Source of the DNA: Alphaproteobacteria bacterium
Lineage (GTDB): Bacteria > Pseudomonadota > Alphaproteobacteria > UBA9219 > RFNS01
Length of the DNA stretch: 64,000 bases
Reading direction: 5' to 3'
Assembly (NCBI GenBank): GCA_037200005.1
Contig: JBBCGY010000002.1
Span: forward strand, 460,667-524,666
Shown: positions 6,379 to 36,057 of the stretch, piece after piece
How positions within the stretch are numbered: position 1 is the stretch's first letter
Layout: every line of letters starts with the position of its first letter
The notes under the pieces: generated by a model
What the model was told of the DNA's origin: nothing
Seen by the model: only the letters and a program-made list of their open reading frames with translations
Database searches by the model: none
Position numbers and translations under genes: made by a program

Positions 6379-6389
6379 GCGCGAACCCC

Positions 6390-6417
6390 ATAATATGATA
6401 AAATACTCATAAATGCA
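6390..6417 (-). promoter_or_regulatory. sigma70-type promoter for higBA (TTGCAT-N16-TATTAT)
   Basis: Read on the minus strand: TTGCAT, 16-nt spacer, TATTAT, then GGGG RBS and TTG start. Confidence 0.4.
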
Positions 6418-6531
6418 ATAGTGCGATGAATTGCCAATGGCAAGCGCTATATGCATCGCACCATTGAATCTTTAACCAACCCTAACCATTTCTTAAAGAG
6501 TTCGGGCCAGATTCATGATGGAGGCTTCCCC

Positions 6532-7668: not shown

Positions 7669-8213
7669 GCGGCGTTCCCGAAAGAGAAGCCGATGACGAC
7701 ATAAAGGCGGCTTTCATGCAGCTTGTCGCCAAGAACGCCGAGGCCGCGCACGGAGCGGGCATGCCAAGCTTACTCAACGTCACGCTCAAGCAAAGCGATG
7801 CCAGCCCCTTTCTTCCTTCGGCGGAACGCGCCGCCGACATGAATTTTCCTCTTCCCTTTACCGGCGACCGTCCCGAAGTTCCGCATTTGATTGTCGAATT
7901 CGACATGAAGGATGAGAGTCAGAAGATGGAATGGCGCTTGCTCCATAAGGCTCTGTCGTCAAATCGTACGAAAGAATTAGGCGGCGTACTTCAAATTGAC
8001 GGCAAGCGAACTCGATGGGTGATTCCCATGGGCCATATGCGATACGATGGCAAAGCTTCCCGGCGTCAAAGGATATTGGACGCTCATAAAACAGAAAAAG
8101 AAGGCGTTTATGAGCCGACGCTTCTGGCGACGATCAGAAGCGCGATCGAACTTCCCAAAGTGCCGGGGGGAGGATCGACGCCTTTCACGCCGGCGGCACC
8201 GCTTCCCAATTAG
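7665..8213 (+). CDS. hypothetical protein embedded in the beta-oxidation operon (182 aa)
   Basis: ATG 7665 overlaps the thiolase stop (ATGA), with a GGAGG RBS. No recognisable domain. Confidence 0.4.
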
Positions 8214-8229
8214 AATAGGCATCGCAATC

Positions 8230-10557: not shown

Positions 10558-10560
10558 ACC

Positions 10561-12342
10561 ATGCCCAAATATCAAGCGCCGCGCGACGACATCAAATTTC
10601 TGCTGCATGAGGTGCTGGACGCCGCGCAGCTGGAAAAATTCCAGGGCTACGGCGACGCCAGTCTGGAATTGATCGACAGCGTGATCGAAGAGGCGGGCAA
10701 GGTCGCGGAGCAAGTGTTGTTTCCGCTCAACCAGTCGGGCGATGAGGAAGGCTGCCATTTCGACAATGGCGTCGTCACGACGCCGAAGGGATTCAAGGAA
10801 GCTTACACGACATTCCGCGAGGGCGGCTGGATCGGCCTATCCTGCGATCCGGCCTATGGCGGGCAAGGGCTGCCGCTACTGCTGAATTTCGTCGTCGATG
10901 AAATCGTCAGCGCGGCGAACATGTCGTTCGGCATGTATCCCGGCCTGTCGCACGGCGCGTATAACGCGATCAATATTCACGGCAGCGCGGAATTGAAACA
11001 GCAATATCTGCCGAAGCTGGTGGATGGAACCTGGTCGGGCACGATGTGCCTGACCGAGCCGCAATGCGGAACCGATCTCGGCCTGATCCGCACGCGGGCG
11101 GAGCCGGACGGAAACGGCGGTTACAAAATCATCGGCACGAAGATATTCATCTCGGCGGGCGAGCATGATTTGACCGATAACATTTTGCATCTGGTGCTGG
11201 CGAAGCTGCCCGACGCGCCCGCCGGAACCAAGGGCATTAGTTTGTTCCTGGTGCCGAAGATTTTGCCGGACGGCAAGCGCAACGGGCTGAATTGCGGGCG
11301 CATCGAGCACAAGATGGGCATCAAGGCGTCATCGACCTGCGTGATGAATTTCGAGGGCGCGACCGGCTGGCTGGTCGGCAAGCCGCATGGCGGCATGAAG
11401 GCGATGTTCACGATGATGAACGAGGCGCGGCTCGCGGTCGGCATTCAGGGGCTTGGGCTGGCCGAAGTCAGCTATCAGAATGCCGTGGTCTATGCCAAGG
11501 AGCGCCTGCAGATGCGGGCGCTGACCGGCGTAAAATTTCCGGACAAGCCTGCCGATCCGATCATCGTCCATCCCGACGTGCGGCGCAATCTTCTGACCAT
11601 GAAGGCGCTGACCGAAGGCTGCCGTGCGCTGGCCTGCTGGATCGGGCTGCATCTCGATATCGAGGCGAAGCATCCCGATGCCGCGAAGCGGGCGGAGGCG
11701 GGCGAGCTCGTCGCGCTGATGACGCCGATCGTCAAATCCTTCCTGACCGATACAGGCTTCGATGTCGCCAATATCGGCATGCAGATTTACGGCGGCCATG
11801 GCTACTGCATGGATTTCGGCATGGAGCAATATGTCCGCGACGCCCGCATCACGCAGATTTATGAAGGCACCAACGGCATTCAGGCGCTCGATCTCGTCGG
11901 GCGCAAGATGCCGGATACCTACGGCAAGCTGCTGCGGCGGTTTTTCCATCCGGTCGCAGATTTTATCGAGGCCGAGAAGGGGAGCGCCGCGCTGGCGGAT
12001 TTCATGCCGTCCTTTATCAGCGCCTTCGGCAAATTGCAGATGGCCTCGGTGACGGTGGCCTCGCGCGGCCTTGGCAATCCTGACGAGGCCGGGGCGGCGG
12101 CGAGCGACTATCTCAAGCTGTTCGCGTATGTCGCCGTCGGCTATATGTGGCTGAAGATGGCAAAGGTCGCGGCGGAGAAACTTCCGGCGGCGGGCGACCG
12201 CGCGGGCTTTTACGACGCCAAGCTCAAAACCGCGCGCTTCTATTTCCAGAAGATCATGCCGCAGGTCAATGCGCTCAACCTCTCCATCATGGCGGGCAGC
12301 AAGCCGGTCATGGATTTCCCGGTCGAGGGATTCGGAAACTAA
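10561..12342 (+). CDS. acyl-CoA dehydrogenase (long-form, 593 aa)
   Basis: ACAD core (GTMCLTEPQCGTDL, IYEGTNGIQALDL) plus an N-terminal extension and a C-terminal domain. Confidence 0.85.
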   Translation: MPKYQAPRDDIKFLLHEVLDAAQLEKFQGYGDASLELIDSVIEEAGKVAEQVLFPLNQSGDEEGCHFDNGVVTTPKGFKEAYTTFREGGWIGLSCDPAYGGQGLPLLLNFVVDEIVSAANMSFGMYPGLSHGAYNAINIHGSAELKQQYLPKLVDGTWSGTMCLTEPQCGTDLGLIRTRAEPDGNGGYKIIGTKIFISAGEHDLTDNILHLVLAKLPDAPAGTKGISLFLVPKILPDGKRNGLNCGRIEHKMGIKASSTCVMNFEGATGWLVGKPHGGMKAMFTMMNEARLAVGIQGLGLAEVSYQNAVVYAKERLQMRALTGVKFPDKPADPIIVHPDVRRNLLTMKALTEGCRALACWIGLHLDIEAKHPDAAKRAEAGELVALMTPIVKSFLTDTGFDVANIGMQIYGGHGYCMDFGMEQYVRDARITQIYEGTNGIQALDLVGRKMPDTYGKLLRRFFHPVADFIEAEKGSAALADFMPSFISAFGKLQMASVTVASRGLGNPDEAGAAASDYLKLFAYVAVGYMWLKMAKVAAEKLPAAGDRAGFYDAKLKTARFYFQKIMPQVNALNLSIMAGSKPVMDFPVEGFGN

Positions 12343-23777: not shown

Positions 23778-24071
23778 AAGACTTCTCCCGTATAGAGTTG
23801 TGAGTAATCAATGATTGGCAGAAGCCGGTCGAATGTCGAGCTTTAATAAAAGACGACTGGGGCAGGTAAGAGGAATTCAGGTTGGTGCCGCCGGAATGAG
23901 GGGAGTCATTGACGGCGGCACCGGAACAAAGAATGAAGGCTCAACCATAAGTTTTCGATTTGTTTACGGCTGCAAATGCTATTTTTTCCATAGAAAACTA
24001 ATCTATATCGTTGAATTTGCTTGATAAGAACAAATATAGAACATTTGTTTCGATTTTGCTATATAGAGAAT

Positions 24072-25154
24072 ATGAAACAAGAAACCACGAAACCGGGCGT
24101 GCATGGGCGCGGCGCGCTGGAAAATCCCGCGGGGCGATTCGAAAAGCTCGCCACTATTGAAGAACGCGACGATGATTTCCACGATCCCGAAGACGAATCG
24201 GGCAAACGCCTGCCGACCACGGTTTTCCGCGATGCGTCGCGCAGCGTGATCTCGACCAATGACAGTCCCGATATCGGCATGGAGGCCTCGGTCAATCCCT
24301 ATCGCGGCTGCGAGCATGGCTGCATCTATTGTTACGCGCGCCCGACCCATGAATATTTCGGGCTTTCGGCGGGACTGGATTTCGAGACGAAAATTTTCGC
24401 GAAGACCGACGCTCCGGAATTGCTACGCGCCAAACTCGCCTCCAAATCCTGGGAACCCAAAGTCATAACCTTCAGCGGCGTGACCGATTGCTATCAGCCT
24501 ATCGAGCGCAAGATGAAGATTACGCGCGGCTGCATGCAAGTTCTGGCCGCGTTTCGCAATCCGGCCGTCGTCATCACCAAGAATTATCTTGTCACGCGCG
24601 ATATCGATATCTTCAAGGAGATGGCCGCCGTGCAGGCCATTGCCGTCAATCTGTCGATCACGACGCTCGATCCGAAACTGGCGCGCGCCATGGAGCCGCG
24701 CGCCTCGCGTCCCGCCTTGCGGCTGCGGGCGGTGGAAGAATTGGCGAAGGCGGGCATTCCGGTCAGCGTGATGGTCGCGCCGATCGTACCGGGACTTACC
24801 GAGCATGAAATCCCGGCGATTTTAGAGGCGGTGGCGAATGCGGGAGCGCGCACGGCGCATTATACCGTCATGAGCCTCCCTTACGGCGTGAAGGATTTGT
24901 TTCAAACCTGGATCGCCGAGCATTATCCCGACCGCGCCAAGAAAGTTCTGAACCGGATTCGGGAAATACGCGGCGGCAAGCTTAACGATCCGCGCTTCGG
25001 CAGCCGCATGAAAGGCGAGGGGGTTCACGCCGACCAGGTCGCGCAAATCTTCGCGCATTATAAAAAGCGGTATGGGCTGGACCGGCGCTATACCGCGCTA
25101 TCGACGGCGGCATTCCGGTGCGGCGGGAATGACGGGCAGGGGGAGTTGTTTTAG
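24072..25154 (+). CDS. radical SAM protein (PA0069-family-like)
   Basis: CEHGCIYCYARP radical-SAM cysteine motif after a conserved N-region (GRGALENPAGRFEK). Confidence 0.7.
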   Translation: MKQETTKPGVHGRGALENPAGRFEKLATIEERDDDFHDPEDESGKRLPTTVFRDASRSVISTNDSPDIGMEASVNPYRGCEHGCIYCYARPTHEYFGLSAGLDFETKIFAKTDAPELLRAKLASKSWEPKVITFSGVTDCYQPIERKMKITRGCMQVLAAFRNPAVVITKNYLVTRDIDIFKEMAAVQAIAVNLSITTLDPKLARAMEPRASRPALRLRAVEELAKAGIPVSVMVAPIVPGLTEHEIPAILEAVANAGARTAHYTVMSLPYGVKDLFQTWIAEHYPDRAKKVLNRIREIRGGKLNDPRFGSRMKGEGVHADQVAQIFAHYKKRYGLDRRYTALSTAAFRCGGNDGQGELF

Positions 25155-25196
25155 ACGATATGGTCAAATCATCCGTCGCAGGCTACGCTTTAGTCG

Positions 25197-26375
25197 ATGT
25201 TGACGAATCAAACTCCCGCCGTTTCTTTCGTCCTTCCGTGCCTCAATGAGGCGCGGACGGTCGTGCGCTGCGTTGAAATGGCCAAGGAATTTCTGCGGGC
25301 TTCCGGTTATGACGGAGAGGTCATCGTGGCGGATAACGGCAGCACCGACGGCTCGCAGGTGCTGGCGGAAGCCGCCGGGGCGCGCGTCGTGCCTGTCGAT
25401 GCGCGCGGCTATGGCGCGGCCTTGGCGGGCGGGATCGCGGCGGCGCGTGGCGAATATGTGGTCATGGGCGATTCCGATGCCAGCTATGATTTCCGCGAGG
25501 CCGGGAAACTGATCGATACGCTGCGCGCGGGCAGCGATGTCGTCATCGGCAATCGCTTCGAGGGCGGCATCGCGCCGGGAGCCATGCCGTTTCTGCATCG
25601 GTGGCTCGGCAATCCGGTGCTGAGTTTCATCGGACGCTTGTTCTTCAATATCAAGGTCGGCGATTTTCATTGCGGCCTGCGCGGCTTCCGGCGGCAGGCG
25701 ATTGCCGATCTTGATCTGCGCACCACCGGTATGGAGTATGCCAGCGAAATGATCGTCCGCGCCGCGCTCGCCGGGCTTAAAATAGGCGAGGCGCCCGTCA
25801 CGCTCTCCAAGGACGGGCGCGATCATCCGCCGCATTTGCAGACCTGGCGCGACGGTTGGAGGCATCTGCGCTTTTTGCTGCTCTACAGCCCGCGCTGGCT
25901 TTATCTGTATCCGGGAATTTTCATGATCCTGTTCGGCCTGTTCGTCGCGGCACTGCTGCTGCCGGGGCCGTTCATGGTCGCGCCGGGAGTCGGGCTTGAC
26001 GTTCATACCTTGCTCGTCGGCGCGCTCGCGCTTCTCGTCGGCGTGCAGAGCATCACTTTTGCGCTGCTTGCCCGCCAGTACGCGGTGAAGCAGGGCATGC
26101 TGCCTCCCAACTCGGCTTATGAGAGATGGTTCGCCTTGCTCAGCGTCGAGCGCTTGTTACTGCTGGCGCTGGTGATCCTGGTTATCGGCGGCGGCGGCGT
26201 TTTATGGGCGGCCCGGATTTGGTCGGCGGCGGATTTCGGCGCGCTCGATTACCGCGACGTCATGCGCATCATGATCGCGTCGGCGACATGCATCGTCGGC
26301 GGCCTCCAGCTGGGCTTCGCGGCGTTCATGCTCGGCATCATGGATATCAGGCATCGCCGGATAGATGACAGATGA
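25197..26375 (+). CDS. family 2 glycosyltransferase with C-terminal transmembrane region
   Basis: VSFVLPCLNEA...VADNGSTDGS...VMGDSDASYD (GT2 DxD-type motifs) followed by several TM helices. Confidence 0.8.
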   Translation: MLTNQTPAVSFVLPCLNEARTVVRCVEMAKEFLRASGYDGEVIVADNGSTDGSQVLAEAAGARVVPVDARGYGAALAGGIAAARGEYVVMGDSDASYDFREAGKLIDTLRAGSDVVIGNRFEGGIAPGAMPFLHRWLGNPVLSFIGRLFFNIKVGDFHCGLRGFRRQAIADLDLRTTGMEYASEMIVRAALAGLKIGEAPVTLSKDGRDHPPHLQTWRDGWRHLRFLLLYSPRWLYLYPGIFMILFGLFVAALLLPGPFMVAPGVGLDVHTLLVGALALLVGVQSITFALLARQYAVKQGMLPPNSAYERWFALLSVERLLLLALVILVIGGGGVLWAARIWSAADFGALDYRDVMRIMIASATCIVGGLQLGFAAFMLGIMDIRHRRIDDR

Positions 26376-27126
26376 CCGGCGTGTGATCCGAAGCTTTGTC
26401 CCAGCCGCGCGGCGCGCGGTCGATATGGCAACCCTGAAGGCGATCCGCCGCTTCCGGCGACAACAGGAAATGATCGATCCTGATGCCGAGATCGTTCTGC
26501 CATGCGCCTTGCTGGTAATCCCAGAAGCTGTAGGCATGAGGCTCGTCGGGATGCAGGGCGCGAAAAGCGTCGGTCAGGCCGAGATGCTTCAGCCGCCGCC
26601 ATGCGGCGCGGCTTTCAGGCCGGTATAGCGCGTCGCCCTCCCATCTCGCGGGATCATAGACGTCGAGGGCTGTCGGAATGACGTTGAAATCGCCGCCCAG
26701 GATGACCGGGCGCTCGGTCGCCAGCAATTCCCTGGCGCGGGCTTCCAGCCGTTCCAGCCATTTCAGCTTATAGGGAAATTTCTCGCTTTCGACCGGATTG
26801 CCGTTTGGGAGATAGATCGAGGCGACGATGAAATCGCCGCTTTGCGCTTCGAGATAGCGCGCATGGATGTCGCCATCGTCGCCGGGCAGGCGGTCGAGCG
26901 TCAGCTGAACGTCATGCCGGCTCAAGATCGCCACGCCGTTATAGGACTTCTGTCCCGATACATGAGCTTGATAGCCGAGCGCCTCGATCTCCATGCGCGG
27001 AAAACTTTCCGTTTCGCATTTCAATTCCTGCAGCAGCAGAATGTCGGGCTGCGCCTCTTTCACCCATTGGGCGATGTGAGGCATGCGCATTCTGATCGAA
27101 TTGACGTTCCAGGTGGCGATGCGCAT
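26347..27126 (-). CDS. xthA: exodeoxyribonuclease III
   Basis: MRIATWNVNSIR...LLLQELK...GDFNV...SDHTPV signatures of ExoIII/APE1. Confidence 0.9.
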   Translation of the reverse strand: MRIATWNVNSIRMRMPHIAQWVKEAQPDILLLQELKCETESFPRMEIEALGYQAHVSGQKSYNGVAILSRHDVQLTLDRLPGDDGDIHARYLEAQSGDFIVASIYLPNGNPVESEKFPYKLKWLERLEARARELLATERPVILGGDFNVIPTALDVYDPARWEGDALYRPESRAAWRRLKHLGLTDAFRALHPDEPHAYSFWDYQQGAWQNDLGIRIDHFLLSPEAADRLQGCHIDRAPRGWDKASDHTPVICHLSGDA

Positions 27127-27132
27127 GAGGGG

Positions 27133-27606
27133 TTAGGAATGAGAGTGAGGTTTATCTGTTCGTAGGAAGGATAAAACAATTAAACCAATCATAGAACACC
27201 ATATTACAATATTATAACTTTCCGCCGGGATGCCAAATATGTCCCAGGACATATCCCGGCATAGGGATACCATTGCATAGGATGACGCCGGGGCATTGGA
27301 TGTCTCAAGATATTCAAATAGCCCCGATGTTTTGAGAAGCATGGGGATCAAGATAATCGGGTATCCCCATCTTAGAAATAACACCGAGCGTCTATATCGA
27401 TTTGGAACAACAAGGATAATGACACTCGTTGCTAATAGCACCAAATATACAAGACGTTGAATTTTGCACGACCCGCAGCTTGCGCGTATGCCGTAAAAAT
27501 TCTCCGCGATGTAGGCTGCGCTGAGGGCTATACCACTTAAAACAGCAATTATTCCCGCGACGCCTTTTGGAGAAAGCAAATCGTTCGGGGTAATGGCAAT
27601 CCGCAC
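27133..27606 (-). CDS. DsbB-like disulfide bond formation membrane protein (AT-rich gene)
   Basis: Four predicted TM helices. A Cys pair in loop 1 (ASCGSCK) and a second pair ~23 aa apart in loop 2 (CRDMSW...IVIWC), the DsbB-like arrangement. GC content is clearly lower than flanking genes. Confidence 0.4.
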   Translation of the reverse strand: MRIAITPNDLLSPKGVAGIIAVLSGIALSAAYIAENFYGIRASCGSCKIQRLVYLVLLATSVIILVVPNRYRRSVLFLRWGYPIILIPMLLKTSGLFEYLETSNAPASSYAMVSLCRDMSWDIFGIPAESYNIVIWCSMIGLIVLSFLRTDKPHSHS

Positions 27607-27611
27607 GGGCC

Positions 27612-27962
27612 TTATTCCGATATGCTGAACGACTTGCCGCAGCCGCAGCGGGCATCCATGCCGGGAATTTTATCGATAACGAAACCTTCCTTGCCGATCT
27701 GGTCGACGTAATCCACCGTCGCGCCGGAGATAAGACTCAGCGACATCGGATCGATCAGAAGCTCCGCGCCCGCGGGCCCGAAGCGCGCGTCGTCGGTTTG
27801 CGGCTCCCCTTCGGCAAAAGCGATATCGAAGCCGGAGCAGCCGCCGGGATTGATGGCAAGGCGCACCTGCTTGCCGTGGCGCGCCACGAACGCCGCGAGC
27901 TGCTGCGCCGCTGTGCCGGTAACCGTCAAGGAACCGGACTGATGGGAATGCGTTTCGATCAT
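27612..27962 (-). CDS. erpA: iron-sulfur cluster insertion protein, HesB/IscA/ErpA family
   Basis: LAINPGGCSGFDIAF...IDKIPGMDARCGCGKSF with the conserved three cysteines of A-type carriers. Confidence 0.8.
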   Translation of the reverse strand: MIETHSHQSGSLTVTGTAAQQLAAFVARHGKQVRLAINPGGCSGFDIAFAEGEPQTDDARFGPAGAELLIDPMSLSLISGATVDYVDQIGKEGFVIDKIPGMDARCGCGKSFSISE

Positions 27963-27993
27963 GCGCCCATTATAGCGCATATTTTTCTATTTG

Positions 27994-30189
27994 TCAGTCC
28001 GGATGTACGAAGCAAAGGAGATGCTTGGGCGTGTCGCAGGATGCTCTTTCCCATGACCATCGGTTTGAGCTCATCCCGACGGGATCGCCTGTCATGCCAT
28101 AATAGTCGCTATCGTCGGATGTCCAGGGGGCGCTCACCCCCCAGATGCCGCATCCATTGACTTCGCCGTTGCCATTGCCCATATCCAGATTACCCCAGAA
28201 CATGTCGCCGCCGTATTGAGAGTCGCCATTCCGTCCCGTCCAATATTGCGCGGGCAGGCCGAAATGATCTCCCGTCGTCCAGCTCAGATTATCCAATGGC
28301 GCATCGCCATCTCCGTTCGCGCTGAAGGTCGCGCCGCCCGCCGTCGCCGAGCCGGAACGCGCGAACGTATAAGTGGTATCGGGAACCGGCCACGAGCAGT
28401 CGCCGTCGCATAGAAATGCTTCGACGTGGGAACTGTCGAGCAATCCGCGGCCGTTGGCATCGGATTTGTTCAACCAGGTGTTGGCGGTCAGGTCGGCAAG
28501 GCATTTGGCGTCCGCGCCTGCTCGCTCTCCCAGATTTCCGGTCCAGGTGCCGCTGGTCATGACAAAATAGCCGGTGCCGGCCGCCGGAGGAGCCGGATTG
28601 CCGTCCTCCGCTCCCGGATGCACGAGGCAGGCGAGATGCTCGGGCGTGGCGCAGCCGACGCGGCCATATTGCCACCGGGATGGGCCTGCGGTAAGCGCGT
28701 CGCCGATGAAGCCGCCATCCTCGTTGTCGTCGGATATCCAGGGGATAACTCCGGTATGGCCACAGGTATTGACCCACGCGTTGCCGCAGCAACCTTCCTG
28801 AGACCAGTCGGTCCATAGCGTCGGCAAGCCGCCCTCCCAATCAAGGGGATGCCCGCGCGCCGACCAGTATTCCGCCGGATAACCGAAGCGATCCGCCGTC
28901 GACCAGGGGATTTCGTCGCCCGGCCCCTGGCCGAATTCATCGGCAAGGAACGTCGCGCCGCCTGCCGTTGTCGAGCCGGAGCGGGCGAAAGTGTATGCGG
29001 CTTCAGGTTGCGACATCGCGCAATAGTCCCCGTTGCATATGAATGCCCGGACATGATCGGCGTTAAGCAATCCCCGGCTTACGGCGTCGGATTTGTTTAG
29101 CCAGTCATTGCCGGTCAAATCGGCGAGGCATTTCGCATCCGCGCCGTCCGATCCGGCAATACCGTTCAGATTGCCGGTCCATGTGTCGTGGCTCAGGACG
29201 AAGTAGCCGGTGTCGGCGGGCGGCGGCGAAGAATCGCCGTCCGAAAGGGAGGGATGGACGAAACACAGTAAATGTTCCGGCGTGTCGCAAGTGGCGTAGA
29301 ATCGGCCCCACCGGGTTTCCTGTGTATGGTTCGGATCGCCGATCCTGCCGGTGTCGCCAGGGTCGTCGCTCGCGAAAACATAGCCGCAGGTTTGGCTATC
29401 TCCGTTGTTGGCGCCGATATCGACGGAATATTCGAACCATATTTCCGATGAGTACCAGCCTTCCCATGGAAGAGGGTGCTGTCGTCCGGTCCAATATTGC
29501 GCCGCCGAATAGAAATAATTCACGCCGGCCCAGTTTTCATTGTTCTGCGGCCCTTCACCCCACGCATTCGCAGTGAAATTCGCGCCGCCCGCCGTCGTCG
29601 AGCCGGAACGGGCGAAGGTGTAGGGGGTGCTCGCGACGGCCATTGCGCAGCCAAAGCCGTTACATAGGAACGCCCGGACATGATCGGCATTGAGCAGTCC
29701 CCGGCTGACGGCGTCGGACTTGTTCAGCCAATTGTTATCAGTAAGATCGGTAAGGCATACGGCGTCGCCGCCGTCCGAACCATAAATGCTTCCCAGATTT
29801 CCGGTATAACCGTTTTTCGTCATCACGAAATAGCCGCTTCCTGCCGGAGGGGTCGTAGGATCGCCTACGCTGCCCTTGGCGAGGATTTTTTTCCAGACCG
29901 AGCCGTCGCACATCTCGATCGTGGCGTCGGCGTCGTTCCATTGGATGCGCCCCTTATTGTCGGCATCGCAAGTCGTGGGAGCTTCGCCGACCACGACGGT
30001 CTGCGGCGCCCATTTTCGCGTGCCGCCGGTGGTGGTGCATTTGAAAAAGCCGTCGGGGTTGGATTGCGTCTGCCCCGCCACCCTGTCGACGCAGCTCGTC
30101 CATGGTCCTGCCGTCGCGTCGCCCGCGTGGGCTGGAGAAGGAAACATGAGAAACATGATGGCAAGAAATAGAGCGGTCTTTTCGATCAT
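27994..30189 (-). CDS. secreted Cys-rich protein with 4-Cys N-terminal module + 3 x DUF1554/endostatin-like (C-type-lectin-fold) repeats (731 aa)
   Basis: Signal peptide MIEKTALFLAIMFLMFPSPAHA. 80-aa module GDATAGPWTSC...C...C...MCDG. Three ~195-aa repeats each GYFV(M/L)T..TGNLG...GADAKCLADLT..WLNKSDAVSRGLL...VRAFLC...YTFARSG...ATPEHLLCFVHP. The motif arrangement parallels endostatin (GIRGADFQC...FRAFLSS...YIVLCIEN) and the DUF1554 signature. GGGAAG RBS. Confidence 0.6.
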   Translation of the reverse strand: MIEKTALFLAIMFLMFPSPAHAGDATAGPWTSCVDRVAGQTQSNPDGFFKCTTTGGTRKWAPQTVVVGEAPTTCDADNKGRIQWNDADATIEMCDGSVWKKILAKGSVGDPTTPPAGSGYFVMTKNGYTGNLGSIYGSDGGDAVCLTDLTDNNWLNKSDAVSRGLLNADHVRAFLCNGFGCAMAVASTPYTFARSGSTTAGGANFTANAWGEGPQNNENWAGVNYFYSAAQYWTGRQHPLPWEGWYSSEIWFEYSVDIGANNGDSQTCGYVFASDDPGDTGRIGDPNHTQETRWGRFYATCDTPEHLLCFVHPSLSDGDSSPPPADTGYFVLSHDTWTGNLNGIAGSDGADAKCLADLTGNDWLNKSDAVSRGLLNADHVRAFICNGDYCAMSQPEAAYTFARSGSTTAGGATFLADEFGQGPGDEIPWSTADRFGYPAEYWSARGHPLDWEGGLPTLWTDWSQEGCCGNAWVNTCGHTGVIPWISDDNEDGGFIGDALTAGPSRWQYGRVGCATPEHLACLVHPGAEDGNPAPPAAGTGYFVMTSGTWTGNLGERAGADAKCLADLTANTWLNKSDANGRGLLDSSHVEAFLCDGDCSWPVPDTTYTFARSGSATAGGATFSANGDGDAPLDNLSWTTGDHFGLPAQYWTGRNGDSQYGGDMFWGNLDMGNGNGEVNGCGIWGVSAPWTSDDSDYYGMTGDPVGMSSNRWSWERASCDTPKHLLCFVHPD

Positions 30190-30213
30190 ATAAGTCTTCC
30201 CATCTGCGCTACC

Positions 30214-31137
30214 TCATTCATCCGTATGAACGAAGCATACGAGCCGTTTAGTGTTATCACATCCGACCATTTCCCCCCCATCAAGGGAAGTCCACCGAAG
30301 ATGGTTTGTCTGGGCCGTATCGCCATAGATGCCGCTATAAAATTCCTCGTCTGTCCAATTGCTGCAATTGTCAAAGCCGTTGTTCCATTGATGAGAATCC
30401 ACCCAGAATTCCTCGGGGCTGCCATAGTTAAACCGTCCCGACCAATATGTCGCTGTCGAATCGAAATGAGTCGCGTTCGACCAATCGTCGCTGTCGCCCG
30501 GCCCCGATCCCCATCCATCCACTATGAACGTCGCGCCGCCGGCCGTCGCCGAGCCGGAGCGGGCGAAAGTGTATGTGCCGTAAGGCAGCGCCATCGCGCA
30601 CTGATCCGAGCCGCATAAGAAGGCGCGAACATGGTCGGCGTTAAGCAGGCCCCGGCTCACGGCATCGGATTTATTCAGCCAGGTATTGGCGGTCAGATCG
30701 GAAAGGCATTTGTCATCCGCGCCTTCGACATTGCCCAGATCGCCTGTCCATGAAGCGCTGGTCAAGACGAAATAGCCCATGCCTTCGGGCGGCACGGCGG
30801 CGTCGCTGCCGCCGCTGGCGACGATCTTTTTCCAGTCCGAACCGTCGCACATTTTGATGGTGCTTTCCGTCGCGTCCCATCGCAAGCGGCCCTTATTGTT
30901 GGCATCGCAGGTTGTGGGAGTCTCGCCGATAACGATAGTCTGCGGCGCCCATTCTTGCGTGCTGCCGGTCGAGGTGCACATGAAAAATCCGTCTGGGGTG
31001 CTTTGTACATTTCCCAGCGCCCTGTCTTCACAGCTTGTCCACGGCCCCGCCGTCGCATCGCCAGCGTGAACCGCCGGCGCGGCGAGCAATAATGTGGCGA
31101 GAAGCAGAGCGAGGGCAAATTTGTTCATATAGGCCAT
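30214..31137 (-). CDS. secreted paralog: 4-Cys N-terminal module + 1 x DUF1554/endostatin-like domain
   Basis: Signal peptide MNKFALALLLATLLLAAPAVHA. N-module nearly identical to neighbours (GDATAGPWTSCEDRALGNVQSTPDGFFMCTSTGSTQEWAPQ...). One repeat ending ...KRLVCFVHTDE. Start ATG 31137 overlaps the upstream paralog's stop (TAATG); alternative ATG at 31128. Confidence 0.6.
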   Translation of the reverse strand: MAYMNKFALALLLATLLLAAPAVHAGDATAGPWTSCEDRALGNVQSTPDGFFMCTSTGSTQEWAPQTIVIGETPTTCDANNKGRLRWDATESTIKMCDGSDWKKIVASGGSDAAVPPEGMGYFVLTSASWTGDLGNVEGADDKCLSDLTANTWLNKSDAVSRGLLNADHVRAFLCGSDQCAMALPYGTYTFARSGSATAGGATFIVDGWGSGPGDSDDWSNATHFDSTATYWSGRFNYGSPEEFWVDSHQWNNGFDNCSNWTDEEFYSGIYGDTAQTNHLRWTSLDGGEMVGCDNTKRLVCFVHTDE

Positions 31138-32054
31138 TACCCCGGATGGACGAAACAGATGAGATGCTTGAGCGTCGTGCAATTGGCCCCGCCGACGTTC
31201 CAGCGGCTTTCGTTGGTAGCGGTGGAATTCCCCCAGTTGCCGTCGGTGCCGCTGTCCCAATCGACGGTCCAATTCCTGCAATGGCTGAATCCGGCATTCC
31301 AGTTGAACCATTCAAACCATACTTCGCTCGTATAGTATGTTTCAAATGGACCGGGATGTTGTCGCCCGGTCCAGTAGGGCGCGGCCATGCCGAAATAATT
31401 TACGCCTGCCCAGGTTTCGTTGCTTCCCGGCCCCATGCCTTCAATGTTCGCGGTGAATGTCGCGCCGCCCGCCGTCGCCGAGCCGGAGCGGGCAAAAGCG
31501 TAAGTCGCAAGCGGCAATGCCATCGCGCAACCGTCGCCGTCGCACAAGAACGCTTTTATATGATCGACATTGAGCATTTCGCGGCTATCGGCATCGGACT
31601 TGCCCAGCCAATCATTGGCCGTCAGGTCGGCGAGGCATTTCGCGTTCGCGCCGGAAATGCCGCCCATCTCTCCGTTCCATGTGTCATGCGACAGCACGAA
31701 ATAGCCGACGCCCTCCGGTGGAATTGATTGTTGCGCGCCGGCGGGGATGATCCACTTCCACGAACCATTCTGACACATCAAAAGGGTGCTGTATTCGTTG
31801 TTCCAGCCCAGGCGGCCGGTATTGTCCTGATTGCAAGTCGCCGGCGTCTCGCCGATCACGATGGTCTGTGGCGCCCATTTCCGGGTGCCGCCTGTCGTCG
31901 TGCATGCAAAGAATCCGTCGGGGTTGGATTGCGTCTGCCCCGCTGCTTTGTCGGTGCAGCTTGTCCACGGCCCCGCCGTCGCGTCGCCCGCGTGTACCGG
32001 CGCGGTGAAGAGCAGCGTCATGAGAAATAGAGCGGTCTTGAAATAAGGTGTCAT
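31137..32054 (-). CDS. secreted paralog: 4-Cys N-terminal module + 1 x DUF1554/endostatin-like domain
   Basis: Signal peptide MTPYFKTALFLMTLLFTAPVHA. Same N-module. One repeat ending ...LKHLICFVHPG. First gene of the three. Confidence 0.6.
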   Translation of the reverse strand: MTPYFKTALFLMTLLFTAPVHAGDATAGPWTSCTDKAAGQTQSNPDGFFACTTTGGTRKWAPQTIVIGETPATCNQDNTGRLGWNNEYSTLLMCQNGSWKWIIPAGAQQSIPPEGVGYFVLSHDTWNGEMGGISGANAKCLADLTANDWLGKSDADSREMLNVDHIKAFLCDGDGCAMALPLATYAFARSGSATAGGATFTANIEGMGPGSNETWAGVNYFGMAAPYWTGRQHPGPFETYYTSEVWFEWFNWNAGFSHCRNWTVDWDSGTDGNWGNSTATNESRWNVGGANCTTLKHLICFVHPG

Positions 32055-32084
32055 GCCGATCCCATACTGCCGCTTATAATCGGA

Positions 32085-32118
32085 ATAGTTGAATTATAGC
32101 CCATCGGCCATGAAAACG
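32085..32118 (-). promoter_or_regulatory. candidate promoter (TATAAT -10 box) upstream of the three-gene DUF1554-like cluster
   Basis: Minus-strand read ...GGGCTATAATTCAACTATTCCGATTATAAGCGG... about 35-45 nt upstream of ATG 32054. GGGA RBS. Confidence 0.3.
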
Positions 32119-32120
32119 CT

Positions 32121-33902
32121 CTAAAAATAACTCTCCGAAACGGTGCAAACCGTGTCCTTGCCGTCGGTTATGATCATGCGCAGGCCCGTCGTCTGCGGCA
32201 AAATCTGTTCGGCATAGAACAGCGCCGTCGTATTTTTATCATTGAGGAATGCCTGATCTTCCGCCGGAGCGGCGGCCAGCAACTGCGTTGCGTGCGCCGC
32301 CGATTGAGCAAGGCATAGACCGCCCAGCACGATTCCAGCGAGCCGAAGGTAATGAGCCGCGCCCGCCGCGGCGGCGAGCCTGTCATTGACCAGGTAATCG
32401 ACCATGGCCTGCGTCGCGCTTTCGAGATCGGTGCGCGCGAAGGCCAGCTGTTCCCGTATCTTGCGGGTACGGTCAGTGCCCAGACGTCCTAATTCAGATT
32501 CCAGCTTTTTGATCTCGGTGCATATCCTGAACATGGCCATGCCCTGGTCGGAGGCCAGTTTGCGAAACACTAAATCCTGCGCTTGAATGCCGTTGGTTCC
32601 TTCGTAGATGGCAAGAACCCGTGCGTCCCGGTAATGCTGGGCTATGCCCGCTTCCTCGATATAGCCCATGCCGCCGCAGACTTGAATGGCGAGGCTGGTG
32701 ACCTCGTTGCTCATATCCGTCAGCCATGCCTTGAGGATCGGCGTGAATAAATCCAGCTGTATGGCCGCTAATCTATCATCCTCGTTCTTCCGCGTCCGAT
32801 CGGCCATATGGCCGGCCAGAACGAAAAAGGCGCGGCCAGCCTCGATCTGGGAGCGCATGGTCATGAGCATGCGCTTCACGTCGGGATGCGCGATGATCGG
32901 AACCGGAGGGCTGTTCTTTTTCAGGCGCATGTCATGCCCCTGAACGCGGGTTTGAGCATAATTCCGCGCGTCCTGATAGGCGCGCTCGGCCAACGCCAGC
33001 CCCTGGATGCCGACGCCGATGCGGGCGTTATTCATCATGGTGAACATCGCCGCCATGCCGCCATGCTGCTGGCCGATGAGATAGCCAATTGCGCCGCCAT
33101 TGTCGCCATACGCCATGACGCAGGTCGGGCTGGCATGCTGGCCGAGCTTGTGTTCGATGGATACGACGCGCACATCGTTGGCCTTGCCGAGCGTGCCGTC
33201 CGACTTGACCAGCATTTTCGGCACCAGGAACAGCGATAAACCCTTGGTGCCCGGAGGCGCGTCGGGGAGGCGGGCGAGGACGAAGTGCAAAATATTTTCG
33301 GCCATGTCGTGGTCGCCATAGCTGATGAAGATTTTCTGCCCCACGATGCTGAAATAACCGTCTTGCGGCTTCGCGGTCGTGCGAATGGCGGCGACATCGG
33401 ACCCGGCCTGCGGCTCGGTGATGTTCATCGTGCCGGTCCATGCGCCGCTGACCAGTTTCGGCAGATAGCGGTTTTTGACTTCCTGCTGGCCGTGCGTCGC
33501 CAGAAGTTCGATGGCGCCTTGATTCAGCAAGGTGGCGAGCGCCAATGACAGATTCGCCGCCTGAAACATTTCCTGGATGCAGAATGCTACCGACCATGGC
33601 AGTCCCATGCCGCCAATCTCCGCGTCGAACGGCACGGCGTTCCAGCCGCCCTCGGTAAAAGCGCGGTAGGCGGCGGCGAAACCCTCAGGCATGACGGCTT
33701 TGCCGTCCTCCATGCGGGCGCCGGTCTTGTTGCCGCTGTAATTGAGCGGCGCGAAAGTGCCGGCGGCCAACGCTCCCGCGCCGCTCAGAACATCGTCGAT
33801 CAGTTCGGGCGTAACCTCGAAGCCAAGCTGCTGCATGTTGGGGACGCCGATCAGGTTTCTGAGAGCGAATCCCATATCGGCAAGCGGAGGAGCGTAGGTC
33901 AT
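32121..33902 (-). CDS. acyl-CoA dehydrogenase (long-form, 593 aa), paralog of the 10561-12342 gene
   Basis: Same architecture and conserved blocks as the first ACAD (NITEPQAGSDV, IYEGTNGIQAQDL). Confidence 0.85.
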   Translation of the reverse strand: MTYAPPLADMGFALRNLIGVPNMQQLGFEVTPELIDDVLSGAGALAAGTFAPLNYSGNKTGARMEDGKAVMPEGFAAAYRAFTEGGWNAVPFDAEIGGMGLPWSVAFCIQEMFQAANLSLALATLLNQGAIELLATHGQQEVKNRYLPKLVSGAWTGTMNITEPQAGSDVAAIRTTAKPQDGYFSIVGQKIFISYGDHDMAENILHFVLARLPDAPPGTKGLSLFLVPKMLVKSDGTLGKANDVRVVSIEHKLGQHASPTCVMAYGDNGGAIGYLIGQQHGGMAAMFTMMNNARIGVGIQGLALAERAYQDARNYAQTRVQGHDMRLKKNSPPVPIIAHPDVKRMLMTMRSQIEAGRAFFVLAGHMADRTRKNEDDRLAAIQLDLFTPILKAWLTDMSNEVTSLAIQVCGGMGYIEEAGIAQHYRDARVLAIYEGTNGIQAQDLVFRKLASDQGMAMFRICTEIKKLESELGRLGTDRTRKIREQLAFARTDLESATQAMVDYLVNDRLAAAAGAAHYLRLAGIVLGGLCLAQSAAHATQLLAAAPAEDQAFLNDKNTTALFYAEQILPQTTGLRMIITDGKDTVCTVSESYF

Positions 33903-34229
33903 GAGTTTTTATAAACGGCGGTGGGTTAAGAAGTTGCTATTCCGGGGAAGCATTCGATCGGACGATTGTGAAGCGTCCCGGCTGGTTTGTCCATATTTTG
34001 CGATTGCCGACAAACCCGCGTGACATTCGCGTCCGGCATGGTAGATTAGCCGCCGTGACAGGGTCTGAAAACCCTCGAAACCATACGGCGCAATATTCAC
34101 GGTGTGCGCACCCTCGGTCGAGAGGGTGCGGGAATAGAAGACCGCAAGGGAATACCGCGCACGCCGGGTTTTGGCGTTTTCAGCCTCTCGGCATCCGAGC
34201 CGTGTCCTGTCCAACGAAAGGGACGGGGC
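33903..34229. promoter_or_regulatory. long (327 nt) structured divergent intergenic region with an 8-bp inverted repeat GGTTTGTC-N17-GACAAACC and several hairpins
   Basis: GGTTTGTCCATATTTTGCGATTGCCGACAAACC at ~33990-34022. Hairpins GCACCCTC-GGTCGA-GAGGGTGC (~34110-34132) and ACGCC-GGGTTTT-GGCGT+TTTC (~34160-34185). Confidence 0.3.
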
Positions 34230-34595
34230 ATGGATGCAACGGACAGACTGGCGCTTGACCGGCGCATCGGCGAGAGCCTCAAGCGGGCGCGGGTCATGCG
34301 CGGCATGAGCCAGACCCGGCTGGGCAGGTCCATCGGCGTCACTTTTCAGCAGATTCAGAAATACGAGCGCGGCGATAACCGCATCGCGGCCTCGGCGCTG
34401 TTTGCCGCCGCCGCGGCCCTGGATGTCCCCATCGCCTATTTTTTCGACGACGAGGCGGAAAGCGAGGCCGAGGCGGTCTTATGGCCCTCGACGCGAAAAC
34501 ATTTGCTTCTCCTCCGCGCCTTGCAACGCGCCGAGCGCGACCGACCGGCGCTGTACGAAGCTTTATGCGGCGTGATCGCGGGGAAATTTTACTAA
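34230..34595 (+). CDS. XRE-family HTH transcriptional regulator
   Basis: LKRARVMRGMSQTRLGRSIGVTFQQIQKYERGDNRIAASALF is a canonical HTH_XRE. Confidence 0.65.
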   Translation: MDATDRLALDRRIGESLKRARVMRGMSQTRLGRSIGVTFQQIQKYERGDNRIAASALFAAAAALDVPIAYFFDDEAESEAEAVLWPSTRKHLLLLRALQRAERDRPALYEALCGVIAGKFY

Positions 34596-35398
34596 AGCAC
34601 CAACGCCCCGACGCGCGATTTGAAACGCCCGGCAGAAGTCAGGCAAGCAAGAAGGTCGGACGACATATCCGTTTTACAACCCGGCGCTTTGGTGAATAAG
34701 GCGCTGCCCAGCAAGTAGCAATCCTTGCTGAAAAAAGCTTTTCCGGCTTTTTTCATCTCATGAATGCGTTCTTGCACATGATCCTGGCGGCTATAGACGC
34801 CGAACGGCAGCGGCGTGACCCGAAAATCCGAAACCTTATACCCTCGCCGGGATGCATGATCGACGAGCTTCGCGGGATTGGAATAACTCGACATGAGAAG
34901 CAGGACGTTTTCATAGCCGCGCGATAAGAGTCGTTTGCTAACGTCAATACCTTCGCGACCGCCATAGAGGTCGGGCAAAGTCAATTGCTCTCTAGCCATG
35001 GCCGGAAGATACGGCGGGTTTGCTATCAGATATTCGGATTTGGGGATGTCGCGACTCTCAAAGAAGGAGCCGTGATGAGTGATATATTTTTTATTCAAAC
35101 CATATTCCGCGATCAGGCCGTTGGCTGTATCTAGGGCTTCCTTGTTGATTTCATAGCCGTGCACGGTGCCGGAGAAATCGGAATTCAGCAGCGCGGAAAC
35201 AACCGGCGATCCGGTGCCGGAACCGAATTCAACAATAACGGGGCTTGAACAATCCCGCAGCCTGTTAAAAACCATTTGTTCGACGGAACTCGAATACCAG
35301 GAGGATTCTTCCGGGCAGATGAATTTCTTGCGGAAATCCGCTTTATCCTTCGCGGAGACGATAACATCTTTCGTTATTTTTCTCTCAGCCGCAGCCAT
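34592..35398 (-). CDS. class I SAM-dependent methyltransferase, HemK/PrmC-like (NPPY family)
   Basis: Motif I VIVEFGSGTGSPV. Motif IV LIANPPYLP followed by ...LPDLYGGREGIDV, as in PrmC (NPPY...EP.AL.GG.DGL). Stop overlaps the convergent XRE gene by 4 nt. Confidence 0.55.
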   Translation of the reverse strand: MAAAERKITKDVIVSAKDKADFRKKFICPEESSWYSSSVEQMVFNRLRDCSSPVIVEFGSGTGSPVVSALLNSDFSGTVHGYEINKEALDTANGLIAEYGLNKKYITHHGSFFESRDIPKSEYLIANPPYLPAMAREQLTLPDLYGGREGIDVSKRLLSRGYENVLLLMSSYSNPAKLVDHASRRGYKVSDFRVTPLPFGVYSRQDHVQERIHEMKKAGKAFFSKDCYLLGSALFTKAPGCKTDMSSDLLACLTSAGRFKSRVGALVL

Positions 35399-35400
35399 GA

Positions 35401-36057
35401 TTATGTCCTCGGCTCTTTCGACAAATTCCACATCGCCTCGAATTGCTTGCGATAGGCAAGGGTGATCGCCGGAAATTTGTGGAGAATGATCGTCGGCGCG
35501 GGAACTGTCTGGAAATTCATGATCGCCAGGCATTCGCCATATATGTAGAACGGTACCGGCGCAAAAAGTTCCTTGGGGAACCAACGATACTCGTTGTAAT
35601 CGGCGGCGATAAAATTGGTGTCGCCTTCGCAGACAATCGCCAGGACCTTAATGTCCCTACGCTCGCGCACCAATTCCGTCATGCGCTTTCTGTGCGCCTT
35701 GGAAAATTCGACACCCATCGCCCAAAACAGGTTTTCATCGATGCCAAGCTGCATGATGGTGCCGCCATGCTCCTTGGTATATTCATACACGCCGTCAAAA
35801 AAGCGTTGAAGCCCGTCCGAGCCAACCAAAACTTCGACGCCTTGAGGCTTGAGACGAACGCCGGAATTGTCTGTGAACTCGACGCCGTTCTCATCGAACA
35901 CGCGTATAATATCGGCAAGCGTGCCTTCGCGCGGCTGTACGGCGTCGTCTTCGATCTTATTGATAGTGTCGCGCGTCAGCCCGGCCTTTTCCGCCAGCAA
36001 TGCGCCCGACCATCTTAAAAGGCCACGCGCGGCGCGTATCTGTCTGCCTATCGTCAT
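35401..36057 (-). CDS. XRE-family HTH domain fused to a ~150-aa uncharacterised C-terminal domain
   Basis: MTIGRQIRAARGLLRWSGALLAEKAGLTRDTINKIEDD (HTH_XRE). The remainder has no recognisable motif. Confidence 0.5.
   Translation of the reverse strand: MTIGRQIRAARGLLRWSGALLAEKAGLTRDTINKIEDDAVQPREGTLADIIRVFDENGVEFTDNSGVRLKPQGVEVLVGSDGLQRFFDGVYEYTKEHGGTIMQLGIDENLFWAMGVEFSKAHRKRMTELVRERRDIKVLAIVCEGDTNFIAADYNEYRWFPKELFAPVPFYIYGECLAIMNFQTVPAPTIILHKFPAITLAYRKQFEAMWNLSKEPRT

Follow-up and report, generated by a model that had tools for sequence, protein, structure and literature searches.

Organization of the locus

Three adjoining genes, here called A, B and C, lie on the minus strand of the window, by which we mean the whole 64,000-nucleotide stretch of DNA that was analysed. 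The initial annotation had described three paralogues on one strand, and we found their open reading frames at 31137-32054, 30214-31137 and 27994-30189. The products of A and C are identical to the NCBI hypothetical protein WDO70_12225 and to NCBI WDO70_12215, respectively. The features are as follows.

31137..32054, minus strand: gene A, 305 aa; signal peptide, four-Cys N-module and one endostatin-like domain (from the open reading frame and its anatomy)
31989..32054, minus strand: signal peptide of A, aa 1-22, MTPYFKTALFLMTLLFTAPVHA followed by GD; Lys in the n-region, hydrophobic core and V-H-A cleavage motif, read by eye
31707..31988, minus strand: N-module of A, 94 aa, Cys33/51/74/94
31143..31706, minus strand: domain A1, 188 aa, endostatin-like C-type-lectin fold
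30214..31137, minus strand: gene B, 307 aa (304 aa from the MNKF start); signal peptide, N-module and one domain
30223..30777, minus strand: domain B1, 185 aa; 248 bits against the family HMM
27994..30189, minus strand: gene C, 731 aa; signal peptide, N-module and three domains on Pro-rich linkers; three family-HMM domain matches
29251..29835, minus strand: domain C1, 195 aa; 246.8 bits against the family HMM
28615..29208, minus strand: domain C2, 198 aa, two extra Cys in the variable loop; 244.6 bits against the family HMM
28000..28572, minus strand: domain C3, 191 aa; 243.3 bits against the family HMM
32093..32098, minus strand: TATAAT hexamer upstream of gene A; putative element, no -35 match

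The start of gene B is ambiguous. With the 307-aa start of the Logan gene call A and B do overlap in TAATG as proposed, whereas the MNKF start of the NCBI annotation (304 aa, P0002) puts an 8-nt gap between them. Between B and C there is a gap of 24 nt as described, in which GGGAAG, 6 nt before the ATG, would be the proposed ribosome binding site. A TATAAT promoter had also been proposed for gene A. The hexamer does exist, at 32098-32093 of the minus strand and 38 nt before the ATG of A, but its function as a promoter is unsupported; a sigma-70 scan upstream of gene A gave no promoter-like site, and no -35 element accompanies the hexamer. The acyl-CoA dehydrogenase gene upstream of A ends only 66 nt away, and transcription of A by read-through from that gene is therefore equally possible.

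The neighbouring regions scanned with Pfam (24021-27980 and 32121-35584) encode a radical SAM protein, a family 2 glycosyltransferase, Xth, DsbB-like and IscA-like proteins, the acyl-CoA dehydrogenase and an HTH protein, as well as an ORF at 34592-35584 that has no family match in the scan. Neither pilus nor secretion genes are adjacent, be it at the window locus or in the relatives examined.

Protein anatomy and the repeated domain

The leaders were judged by eye, on the basis of Lys in the n-region, a hydrophobic core of at least 12 residues and small residues at -3 and -1. In this reading A, B and C each have the signal peptide that had been claimed for them, a Sec-type leader ending in VHA or AHA before GD, and the mature proteins all start with GDATAGPWTSC. 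The three proteins show neither a lipobox or prepilin leader nor an autotransporter or sorting signal. In the type IV pilin test (N_methyl, PF07963; a G/F-x-x-x-E leader plus hydrophobic helix) none of them gave an N_methyl match, and their leaders end in AxA. A Sec leader guarantees delivery to the periplasm only, and a signal for secretion or anchoring is not evident in the window proteins.

The leader is followed by a Cys module and then by the endostatin-like domains. The module has four cysteines in each protein as expected, but its size is 94-96 aa and not the roughly 80 aa first given. Its second half in A is the family-wide hairpin C-x5-G-x2-R-[YW]-N...C-x-G-x2-W, which scores 30.8 bits with the hairpin HMM. 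The AF2 model of this module (pLDDT 74.6) has two three-stranded beta units, and a fold search with the model returned no significant match.

The endostatin-like domain occurs in one, one and three copies in A, B and C, which bears out the claim of a repeated unit of about 195 aa. The copies have 185-198 aa and 6 Cys (8 in C2), and they open with GYFV and close with C[FL]VH[PT]. All five are mutually 48-55% identical and each scores 240-260 bits against the family HMM, which is far beyond chance. Comparison of the paralogues separates a conserved core (66% identity), made of the N-terminal half and the last strand, from a C-terminal half of Trp/Tyr/Gly-rich loops (34% identity with indels), which holds 6-9 Trp and differs in sequence and length in all five copies. 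Relaxed constraint alone would also be expected to let surface loops vary. All five domains are acidic, with 19-25 Asp+Glu against 9 Lys+Arg and a pI of 4.2-4.8.

Fold and remote homology

An endostatin-type C-type-lectin fold had been suggested for the domain, and both structure and profile searches agree with this. The AF2 model is of high confidence (pLDDT 92.3) and its best four Foldseek matches are endostatins, which are also the best match of the family profile to PDB sequences (E 0.011). In the profile alignment the GAxxKC, CxxW and CxxxxxLxC motifs follow in order and match the four cysteines of endostatin, and YWTG is aligned with the C-type lectin YFIGL (WIGL) motif. Endostatin has two nested disulfides, Cys33-Cys173 and Cys135-Cys165, and its four cysteines align with the family-invariant Cys24, Cys143, Cys176 and Cys184 of domain A1. 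The domain has the fold of endostatin (collagen XV/XVIII NC1; Pfam PF06482); the basic heparin-binding surface and the C-terminal position in a collagen are absent from these acidic domains, and no collagen repeat is found.

The suggested likeness to DUF1554 (PF07588) was borne out by alignments over its full length in relatives, but the window proteins themselves fail the Pfam and NCBIfam thresholds. At the Pfam gathering cutoff of 27.5 bits (whole-protein HMM score) A and C have no match and B stays below the cutoff, with a weak partial match of 16.6 bits (E 0.007) to profile positions 3-36 only. DUF1554 is the sole Pfam family that recurs among the relatives, 23 of 105 matching it at E <=0.01. 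Several of these align to positions 2-135 of its 136 at about 25 bits, which is sub-threshold, and one (L009:6135-8540) passes the cutoff with 29.6 bits; a neighbour of a close homologue has recorded Endostatin and DUF1554 Pfam matches. Against NCBIfam NF047482 (endostatin-like outer membrane protein LenA/LenB, equivalog cutoff 300 bits) A scores 9.9 bits (E 0.41), in an alignment covering profile positions 70-227 of 230. As judged from sequence, the window proteins are remote homologues of endostatin and DUF1554 and no formal members of DUF1554, because they fall below every curated threshold.

Distribution and architectures of relatives

The family is rare, with about 470-680 clusters among 1.84 billion, and is hosted by environmental alphaproteobacteria, Micavibrio, Bdellovibrionales and a few other lineages, with many of its members coming from metagenome-assembled genomes of Micavibrio and Bdellovibrionales. 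A genome scan with a narrow sequence pattern gave 26 loci, 11 of them from Micavibrio or Bdellovibrionales MAGs and others from lineages that include CPR and DPANN. By its MetRS the window organism is not closely linked to Micavibrio.

Paralogue arrays and variable copy number, both anticipated by the initial annotation, recur in other genomes, with tandem arrays at L003, L004, L008, L009, L024 and L032 and up to 11 domain copies in a giant relative of 3515 aa. Relatives carry signal peptides, lipoboxes or prepilin (N_methyl) leaders, and three of them (P0003, P0051 and L004:6291-8576) score above the N_methyl cutoff. The pilin-like relatives have 600-800 aa, with the endostatin-like domain at the C-terminus, and are found in tandem arrays; no pilus machinery was found beside these arrays.

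Interpretation

We consider it fairly probable (roughly 0.6) that A, B and C are Sec-exported, disulfide-stabilised, non-enzymatic binding proteins with a role in recognition or adhesion. Each mature protein would consist of the small beta-rich four-Cys module followed by one (A, B) or three (C) endostatin-like domains on short Pro-rich linkers, and the conserved core of each domain would probably be held by two nested endostatin-type disulfides and one extra local disulfide. The variable Trp/Tyr/Gly-rich loop surface may be where the ligand binds, as it is in other C-type-lectin-like domains, in which case the locus would provide five different binding specificities. By the same kind of analogy the ligand would be extracellular or on a cell surface, such as another cell's envelope or a polymer. 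We favor recognition or adhesion because relatives carry the domain at the far end of pilin-like proteins, lipoproteins and giant repeat proteins. An adhesin reading is attractive in relatives on account of their pilin-like N-terminus, which the window proteins lack, and this is a point against that reading here.

A more specific proposal, which we regard as tentative and rather unlikely, is that the domain family is a cell-cell recognition module of predatory or epibiotic bacteria and the window triplet its secreted or soluble version. The domain could then be displayed at type-IV-pilin-like tips or on giant surface proteins, or be secreted, and the array paralogues with their divergent Trp-rich loops might together determine, as a repertoire, which prey or partner cells are recognised; the uncultured alphaproteobacterium of the window might itself live as a predator. 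The share of Micavibrio and Bdellovibrionales MAGs (11/26 loci) and the frequent pilin-like arrays are consistent with this proposal, whereas the lack of a close MetRS link between the window organism and Micavibrio and the narrow sequence pattern behind the 26 loci limit its weight.

The three proteins could instead remain in the periplasm or on the envelope of their own cell, where their target would be a self component (peptidoglycan, LPS or another envelope protein), and not act as outward adhesins. Their purely Sec-type signal peptides, the housekeeping surroundings (acyl-CoA dehydrogenase, IscA-like, DsbB-like, Xth) and a DsbB-family gene two genes downstream, which fits periplasmic oxidative folding, would all suit such a role. 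However, the pilin-like, lipoprotein and 3515-aa multi-repeat relatives point outward, and loop diversification among paralogues would be unusual for a housekeeping envelope function, so that we find this explanation unlikely. Classical Ca2+-dependent carbohydrate-binding lectins are already disfavored and seem quite improbable. The fold does belong to the C-type-lectin-like superfold and aromatic-rich loops are typical of sugar-binding surfaces, but the EPN, QPD and WND Ca/sugar motifs we looked for are absent from the domains, which sets them outside the classical C-type lectins (Pfam Lectin_C). Since the domains are acidic and have none of these motifs, the best-understood binding chemistries of the fold, those for heparin and for Ca-dependent sugar, are not expected to transfer to them. 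The carbohydrate binding and the diversifying adhesion system suggested in the initial annotation are still conjecture.

The heparin-binding surface of endostatin is basic, and the strong acidity of all five domains is the opposite of what binding to polyanions needs. This makes it very improbable that the proteins are functional equivalents of endostatin or Leptospira Len, binding heparin-like polyanions, laminin or fibronectin of an animal host, even though endostatin is the nearest fold and Len the nearest named family in bacteria; the LenA/LenB score far below its cutoff and the origin of the organism and nearly all relatives in environmental MAGs also speak against it. We give almost no credence to the idea of target proteins of a diversity-generating retroelement (DGR; Mtd/TvpA type), with a variable region mutagenised from a template repeat, which was already disfavored. 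The C-type-lectin fold is the usual class of DGR targets and three relatives have weak Mtd_N matches in the N-terminal hairpin, but no reverse transcriptase is encoded among the Pfam-scanned neighbours (24021-27980 and 32121-35584) and 27000-33000 holds no non-coding template repeat. The DNA repeats in 27000-33000 are all paralogous coding copies (66-80% identity) in register with the domains, and the copies differ by indels, which are not a DGR product. With neither a reverse transcriptase nor a template repeat in the respective regions scanned, the proteins do not classify as DGR variable proteins.

Significance

To our knowledge, work on endostatin-like domains of bacteria has until now been confined to pathogenic Leptospira, in which the Len adhesins attach to complement regulators and matrix of the host. 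The locus belongs to a separate, rare branch of these domains that is mostly missed by curated models. This branch is marked by its own Cys pattern, a conserved Cys-hairpin partner module, fusions to pilin-like leaders and giant repeat proteins, and a strong tendency of its genes to lie in tandem as paralogues whose loop surfaces diverge. Should recognition be their function, the proteins would add a new candidate class of molecules by which predatory or surface-attached bacteria discriminate between targets, and they would also offer a compact, disulfide-stabilised binding scaffold. The present gain is modest. Three "hypothetical proteins" can now be assigned with confidence to a fold and a family, and the set of about 500-700 relatives can be the basis for a proper family model.

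Comparison with known systems

Mammalian endostatin (the C-terminal NC1 of collagens XV/XVIII; PDB 1dy2, 1koe, 1bnl) is 12-14% identical to the window domain, which differs in having an extra Cys pair (C55/C60 in A1), a longer, Trp-rich, loop-rich C-terminal half and an acidic instead of a basic character. The window domains also stand outside any collagen, as tandem copies behind a bacterial signal peptide. Likeness to the MAT fibres of Bdellovibrio bacteriovorus (Bd2740 C-type-lectin-fold tip, PDB 8oks) is at the superfold level only; MAT proteins form trimeric fibres with beta-helix stalks and some S74 peptidase ends, none of which is seen in the window proteins. The C-terminal domains of Legionella Lcl (Lcl_C/DUF1566, PDB 8q4e) and of intimin and invasin are far less similar than endostatin and have a different disulfide pattern and architecture.

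Minor type IV pilins may carry C-terminal lectin-type domains, an example being ETEC CofB with its H-type lectin domain. Several relatives (P0003, P0034, P0051 and members of L003/L004/L009) resemble such pilins, their prepilin N_methyl leader being joined to a binding-fold domain at the C-terminus, whereas A, B and C each start with an ordinary Sec leader and contain no pilin domain, and the domain folds differ. The Len proteins of Leptospira (LenA-F, from six len genes) have one or two endostatin-like modules; they are paralogues that act as surface adhesins and differ in ligand affinity, in a family shaped by gene and intragenic duplication (PMC2063517). Like Len/DUF1554 proteins, the window proteins are bacterial, probably exported and paralogous and are built from endostatin-like modules; their genes form a tandem array. 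They differ from Len in their N-terminal module and in their hosts, which are environmental alphaproteobacteria, Micavibrio and Bdellovibrionales rather than animal pathogens.

Organization of the array

The three genes of the array proved to be consecutive minus-strand ORFs with exactly the coordinates of the initial annotation, and the same three genes were recovered by an independent gene call on the read-set assembly.

Genes of the array
31137-32054, minus strand: ORF A, 305 aa, NCBI hypothetical protein WDO70_12225
30214-31137, minus strand: ORF B, 307 aa, NCBI hypothetical protein WDO70_12220
27994-30189, minus strand: ORF C, 731 aa, NCBI hypothetical protein WDO70_12215

The genes had been described as tightly coupled behind a TATAAT promoter. 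The 24-nt gap between B and C is confirmed in the sequence, and so is the TAATG overlap between the stop of A and the start of B, but the latter depends on the choice of the B start. One gene caller uses the ATG at 31137 (MAYMNKF), and NCBI uses the ATG at 31128 (MNKF, 304 aa), which lies three codons later and turns the overlap into an 8-nt gap. Only with the first start would A and B be translationally coupled by an overlap. The promoter did not hold up: the hexamer is found at 32098-32093 on the minus strand without a -35 partner, and the upstream scan returned no promoter-like site. The acyl-CoA dehydrogenase gene upstream of A ends 66 nt before it, and no terminator-like site was found on the minus strand downstream of C. 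The DNA repeats in the region are all paralogous segments with 66-80% identity.

All three proteins have Sec-type leaders that end in …VHA or …AHA directly before GD, so that the mature proteins all start with GDATAGPWTSC. A four-cysteine N-module of 94-96 aa is followed by one domain copy in A, one in B and three in C, each 185-198 aa long and bounded by GYFV at the start and C[FL]VH[PT] at the end. Each domain has six cysteines except C2, the second copy in C, which has eight. Pairwise protein identity among the five copies is 48-55%, a divergence at which synonymous sites are saturated, and each scores about 240-265 bits against the family HMM. A neighbour-joining tree of 73 domain copies groups the five as an exclusive clade, which suggests that the expansion is old but confined to this lineage.

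Fold of the repeated domain

Curated models barely recognize these proteins. In the Pfam scan, B matched part of DUF1554 (E 0.007; 16.6 bits, with the cutoff at 27.5 bits) and A and C did not match it, while the NCBIfam scan of A reached LenA/LenB only at a sub-threshold E of 0.41. Matches of C to TrbC and DMSO reductase in the same kind of scan were likewise sub-threshold and were judged spurious. Relatives are rare: a set of 5.8 billion proteins yielded 62 in a profile search, and 1.84 billion cluster representatives, searched exhaustively with an HMM, yielded 470, 684 and 2,680 at E ≤1e-30, ≤1e-10 and ≤1e-3, respectively. Among them DUF1554 is the sole recurring Pfam family (23 of 105 at E ≤0.01). 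In several relatives the alignment covers positions 2-135 of the 136 in the model at about 25 bits, and one Bdellovibrionales protein passes the cutoff with 29.6 bits. One family member has a Pfam Endostatin match, and for a neighbour of P0021, a close homologue, matches to both Endostatin and DUF1554 are on record. The proposed DUF1554 link therefore stands as remote homology, which these matches indicate to be real, but the window proteins fall below all curated thresholds and are not formal members of the family.

When a 44-sequence family profile was compared to all PDB sequences, the two best matches were mouse endostatin (E 0.011-0.013) and the third was a C-type lectin. The endostatin alignment pairs GAxxKC with GADFQC, CxxW with CETW and CxxxxxLxC with CHNSYIVLC, and the family YWTG aligns with the YFIGL motif of C-type lectins. 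An AlphaFold2 model of A1, the domain of A, built from the 44-sequence alignment had a mean pLDDT of 92.3 and a pTM of 0.90, with lower confidence only in the 120-150 loop region. Foldseek against the PDB placed four endostatin entries on top (probability 0.82-0.98), and the lower ranks held C-type-lectin-like domains only. Profile and Pfam evidence together with the predicted structure lead us to conclude that the repeated domain belongs to the C-type-lectin-like superfold and is of the endostatin type, in agreement with the initial annotation.

C24, C55, C60, C143, C176 and C184 (A1 numbering) are invariant or nearly so across the family, as are a number of Gly, Trp and Phe positions. Four of the six cysteines align with those that in endostatin pair as two nested disulfides; the predicted pairs in the domain are C24-C184 and C143-C176, and C55 and C60 would form an additional local one. 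Mean identity among the five window copies is 66% over residues 1-90, 65% in the last strand and 34% over residues 91-175, where there are about 12 gap positions per pair of copies and where 6-9 of the 8-11 tryptophans of each domain are found. Family-wide, entropy and insertion sites peak in residues 131-180, and insertions cluster also in the core half at residues 14-17 and 57-59.

The N-module

The second half of the N-module is a hairpin found family-wide, with the consensus ssatCdaateGaiRYNsttktlefCdGtaWkslv, that directly precedes the domain in most relatives, sometimes two or three times over. The first half is restricted to a subgroup of relatives. An AlphaFold2 model of the module was of moderate quality (pLDDT 74.6) and contained two three-stranded units. 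The idea that the module arose by tandem duplication of one hairpin is unsupported by sequence, since an HMM of the second hairpin misses the first. Foldseek of the module against the PDB returned nothing significant (best E 0.48); at noise level it listed Agrobacterium phage receptor-binding and tail-fibre chains. Separately, three family members have weak matches to Pfam Mtd_N, the N-terminal domain of the Bordetella phage receptor-binding protein (best E 0.0012). In one of them, P0232 (E 0.0099), the match at residues 28-52 falls on the Cys-hairpin motif (…RTIMYNTDSHTYQFCNGATW). We regard this resemblance as weak, a lead only.

Architectures and distribution of the relatives

The relatives are nearly always predicted to be exported, by signal peptides, lipoprotein-type leaders (…GCGR) or prepilin leaders. 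Many are proteins of 440-800 aa with a prepilin leader (RGFSLLE…) and an N_methyl match above the Pfam cutoff, and these carry the endostatin-like domain at the extreme C-terminus. The number of copies per protein ranges from 1 to 11. The upper end is P0183, a metagenomic protein of 3515 aa in which 11 copies alternate with repeats of about 110 aa before a long Gly-rich tail; its predicted architecture shows that very large repeat proteins are another setting for the domain.

Tandem paralogue arrays of variable copy number recur in other loci. The largest found is locus L003 (JGI metagenome 3300006417, 204-10474), where at least five consecutive same-strand pilin-like genes encode proteins of about 750 aa, each with the prepilin-type leader GFSLLEVT; the four complete ones carry the endostatin-like domain at the C-terminus, and the fifth is cut short by the end of the locus. 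L004 has two paralogues, L008, L009 and L024 have three each, and the triplet of L032 combines a signal peptide with a four-cysteine N-module as in the window.

When one genome per GTDB species was scanned, relatives turned up at 26 loci, although the scan used one short peptide pattern from a 12-sequence alignment, which skews the taxonomic picture in favour of close relatives.

Sources of the 26 loci
Micavibrio MAGs: 7
Bdellovibrionales or Bdellovibrio MAGs: 4
Alphaproteobacterial MAGs: 9
Unclassified Proteobacteria MAG, Acidobacteria, Magnetococcales, Amphritea, Peribacteria, Woesearchaeota: 1 each

A phage origin of the family was considered and rejected, as a pattern scan and tblastn of IMG/VR found no relatives in viral contigs. 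In the Bdellovibrio sp. CG10 MAG (L031, 7121-12921), the relative P0058 lies directly upstream of a toxin- or adhesin-like protein of 2131 aa with PKD repeats and teneurin-type NHL and YD-shell domains. At L033 (1600-7400), the relative P0033 lies beside many small ORFs, an N6/N4 DNA methyltransferase and a KlcB-like protein. These surroundings look like a mobile element, which hints that some family members may travel horizontally.

Genomic neighbourhood and host

The array sits among housekeeping genes. Downstream of C follow an IscA/ErpA-like gene, a DsbB-family gene and Xth, in that order, and elsewhere the window encodes beta-oxidation enzymes, histidine kinases, LptD, MetRS, HolB and TrmFO.

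Features around the array
6451-12342, plus strand: beta-oxidation cluster (FadA-like thiolase, 836-aa FadB-like protein, 593-aa acyl-CoA dehydrogenase)
27133-27606, minus strand: 157-aa membrane protein, CxxC…QR motif, above-cutoff match to only the N-terminal half of Pfam DsbB (E 1.2e-6)
27612-27980: IscA/ErpA-like gene
27961-27997, minus strand: sigma-70-like site, CTGACA-17-TATAAT (11/12)
32121-33902, minus strand: another 593-aa acyl-CoA dehydrogenase, directly upstream of the array
34104-34595, opposite strand to the next: HTH_3 (XRE-type) regulator gene
34592-35584, minus strand: 330-aa ORF without a Pfam family, its end overlapping that of the HTH_3 gene by 4 nt

The sigma-70-like site is the strongest of the region; it extends across the C stop codon and lies ahead of the IscA/ErpA-like gene. 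Its -10 element lies in a 20-nt palindrome, ATGCGCTATAATGGGCGCAT, a possible operator. The two 593-aa acyl-CoA dehydrogenases are possibly paralogues. The DsbB-family gene lies two genes downstream of the array, which encodes 44 cysteines, and a role of its product in the oxidative folding of the array proteins is a possible link.

The flanks of the arrays at L001, L004, L009, L031, L032 and L033 have nothing in common with each other or with the window, and thus offer no guilt-by-association clue; no pilus or secretion machinery was found in the flanks of the relatives examined. The host MetRS shares no more than 79% identity with other uncultured sequences and 63-68% with those of named taxa (Stellaceae, Hyphomicrobiales, Rhodoligotrophos, Oceanibaculum). 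Micavibrio is absent from its top 120 homologues, so the host cannot be called a predator on this basis.

Possible functions

On the best-supported reading, A, B and C are a small group of exported binding proteins stabilised by disulfides. The closest fold and every weaker structural neighbour are binding or adhesin modules, the relatives have adhesin-like architectures, and there is a precedent in the Len paralogues of Leptospira. These are the only characterised bacterial endostatin-like proteins, and they are surface adhesins whose ligand affinities vary from paralogue to paralogue (PMC2063517). In each domain, the conserved half would serve as a scaffold and the Trp-rich, indel-prone half could provide five different binding surfaces, with the three tandem copies in C perhaps adding avidity or combining specificities.

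Four rival readings were weighed. Binding of host matrix in the manner of Len has the same precedent, but the five domains are all acidic (pI 4.2-4.8), which argues against polyanion binding of the endostatin or Len type and makes this proposal very improbable. The superfold might suggest classical Ca-dependent sugar-binding lectins; the EPN, QPD and WND motifs are missing from all five domains, and we hold this to be quite unlikely. The domains could also be DGR targets, a hypothesis that we rejected as scarcely credible given that the scanned flanks contain no reverse transcriptase or template repeat and that indels separate the copies. The exported proteins might instead act in the periplasm or on the cell's own envelope, which is plausible in itself, though we consider it unlikely.

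For the domain family as a whole, a repertoire for recognizing prey or partner cells is a tentative and rather doubtful proposal. Predatory bacteria are known to use many paralogous surface proteins that differ at their tips, one tip being a Ca-independent C-type-lectin fold (PMC10769870), and Micavibrio has several operons of prepilin-type proteins, some of them highly expressed in attack or attachment (PMC3189940).

Comparison with known systems

Our literature search found no description of the family outside Leptospira. Both endostatin-like (DUF1554) proteins of bacteria and adhesins with a C-type-lectin fold are already known kinds, and among them the window family is a divergent and largely unmodelled branch. 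It is marked by a six-cysteine pattern, a conserved Cys-hairpin partner and recurrent tandem arrays, as well as by pilin-fused and giant multi-copy architectures and a range that includes predatory lineages.
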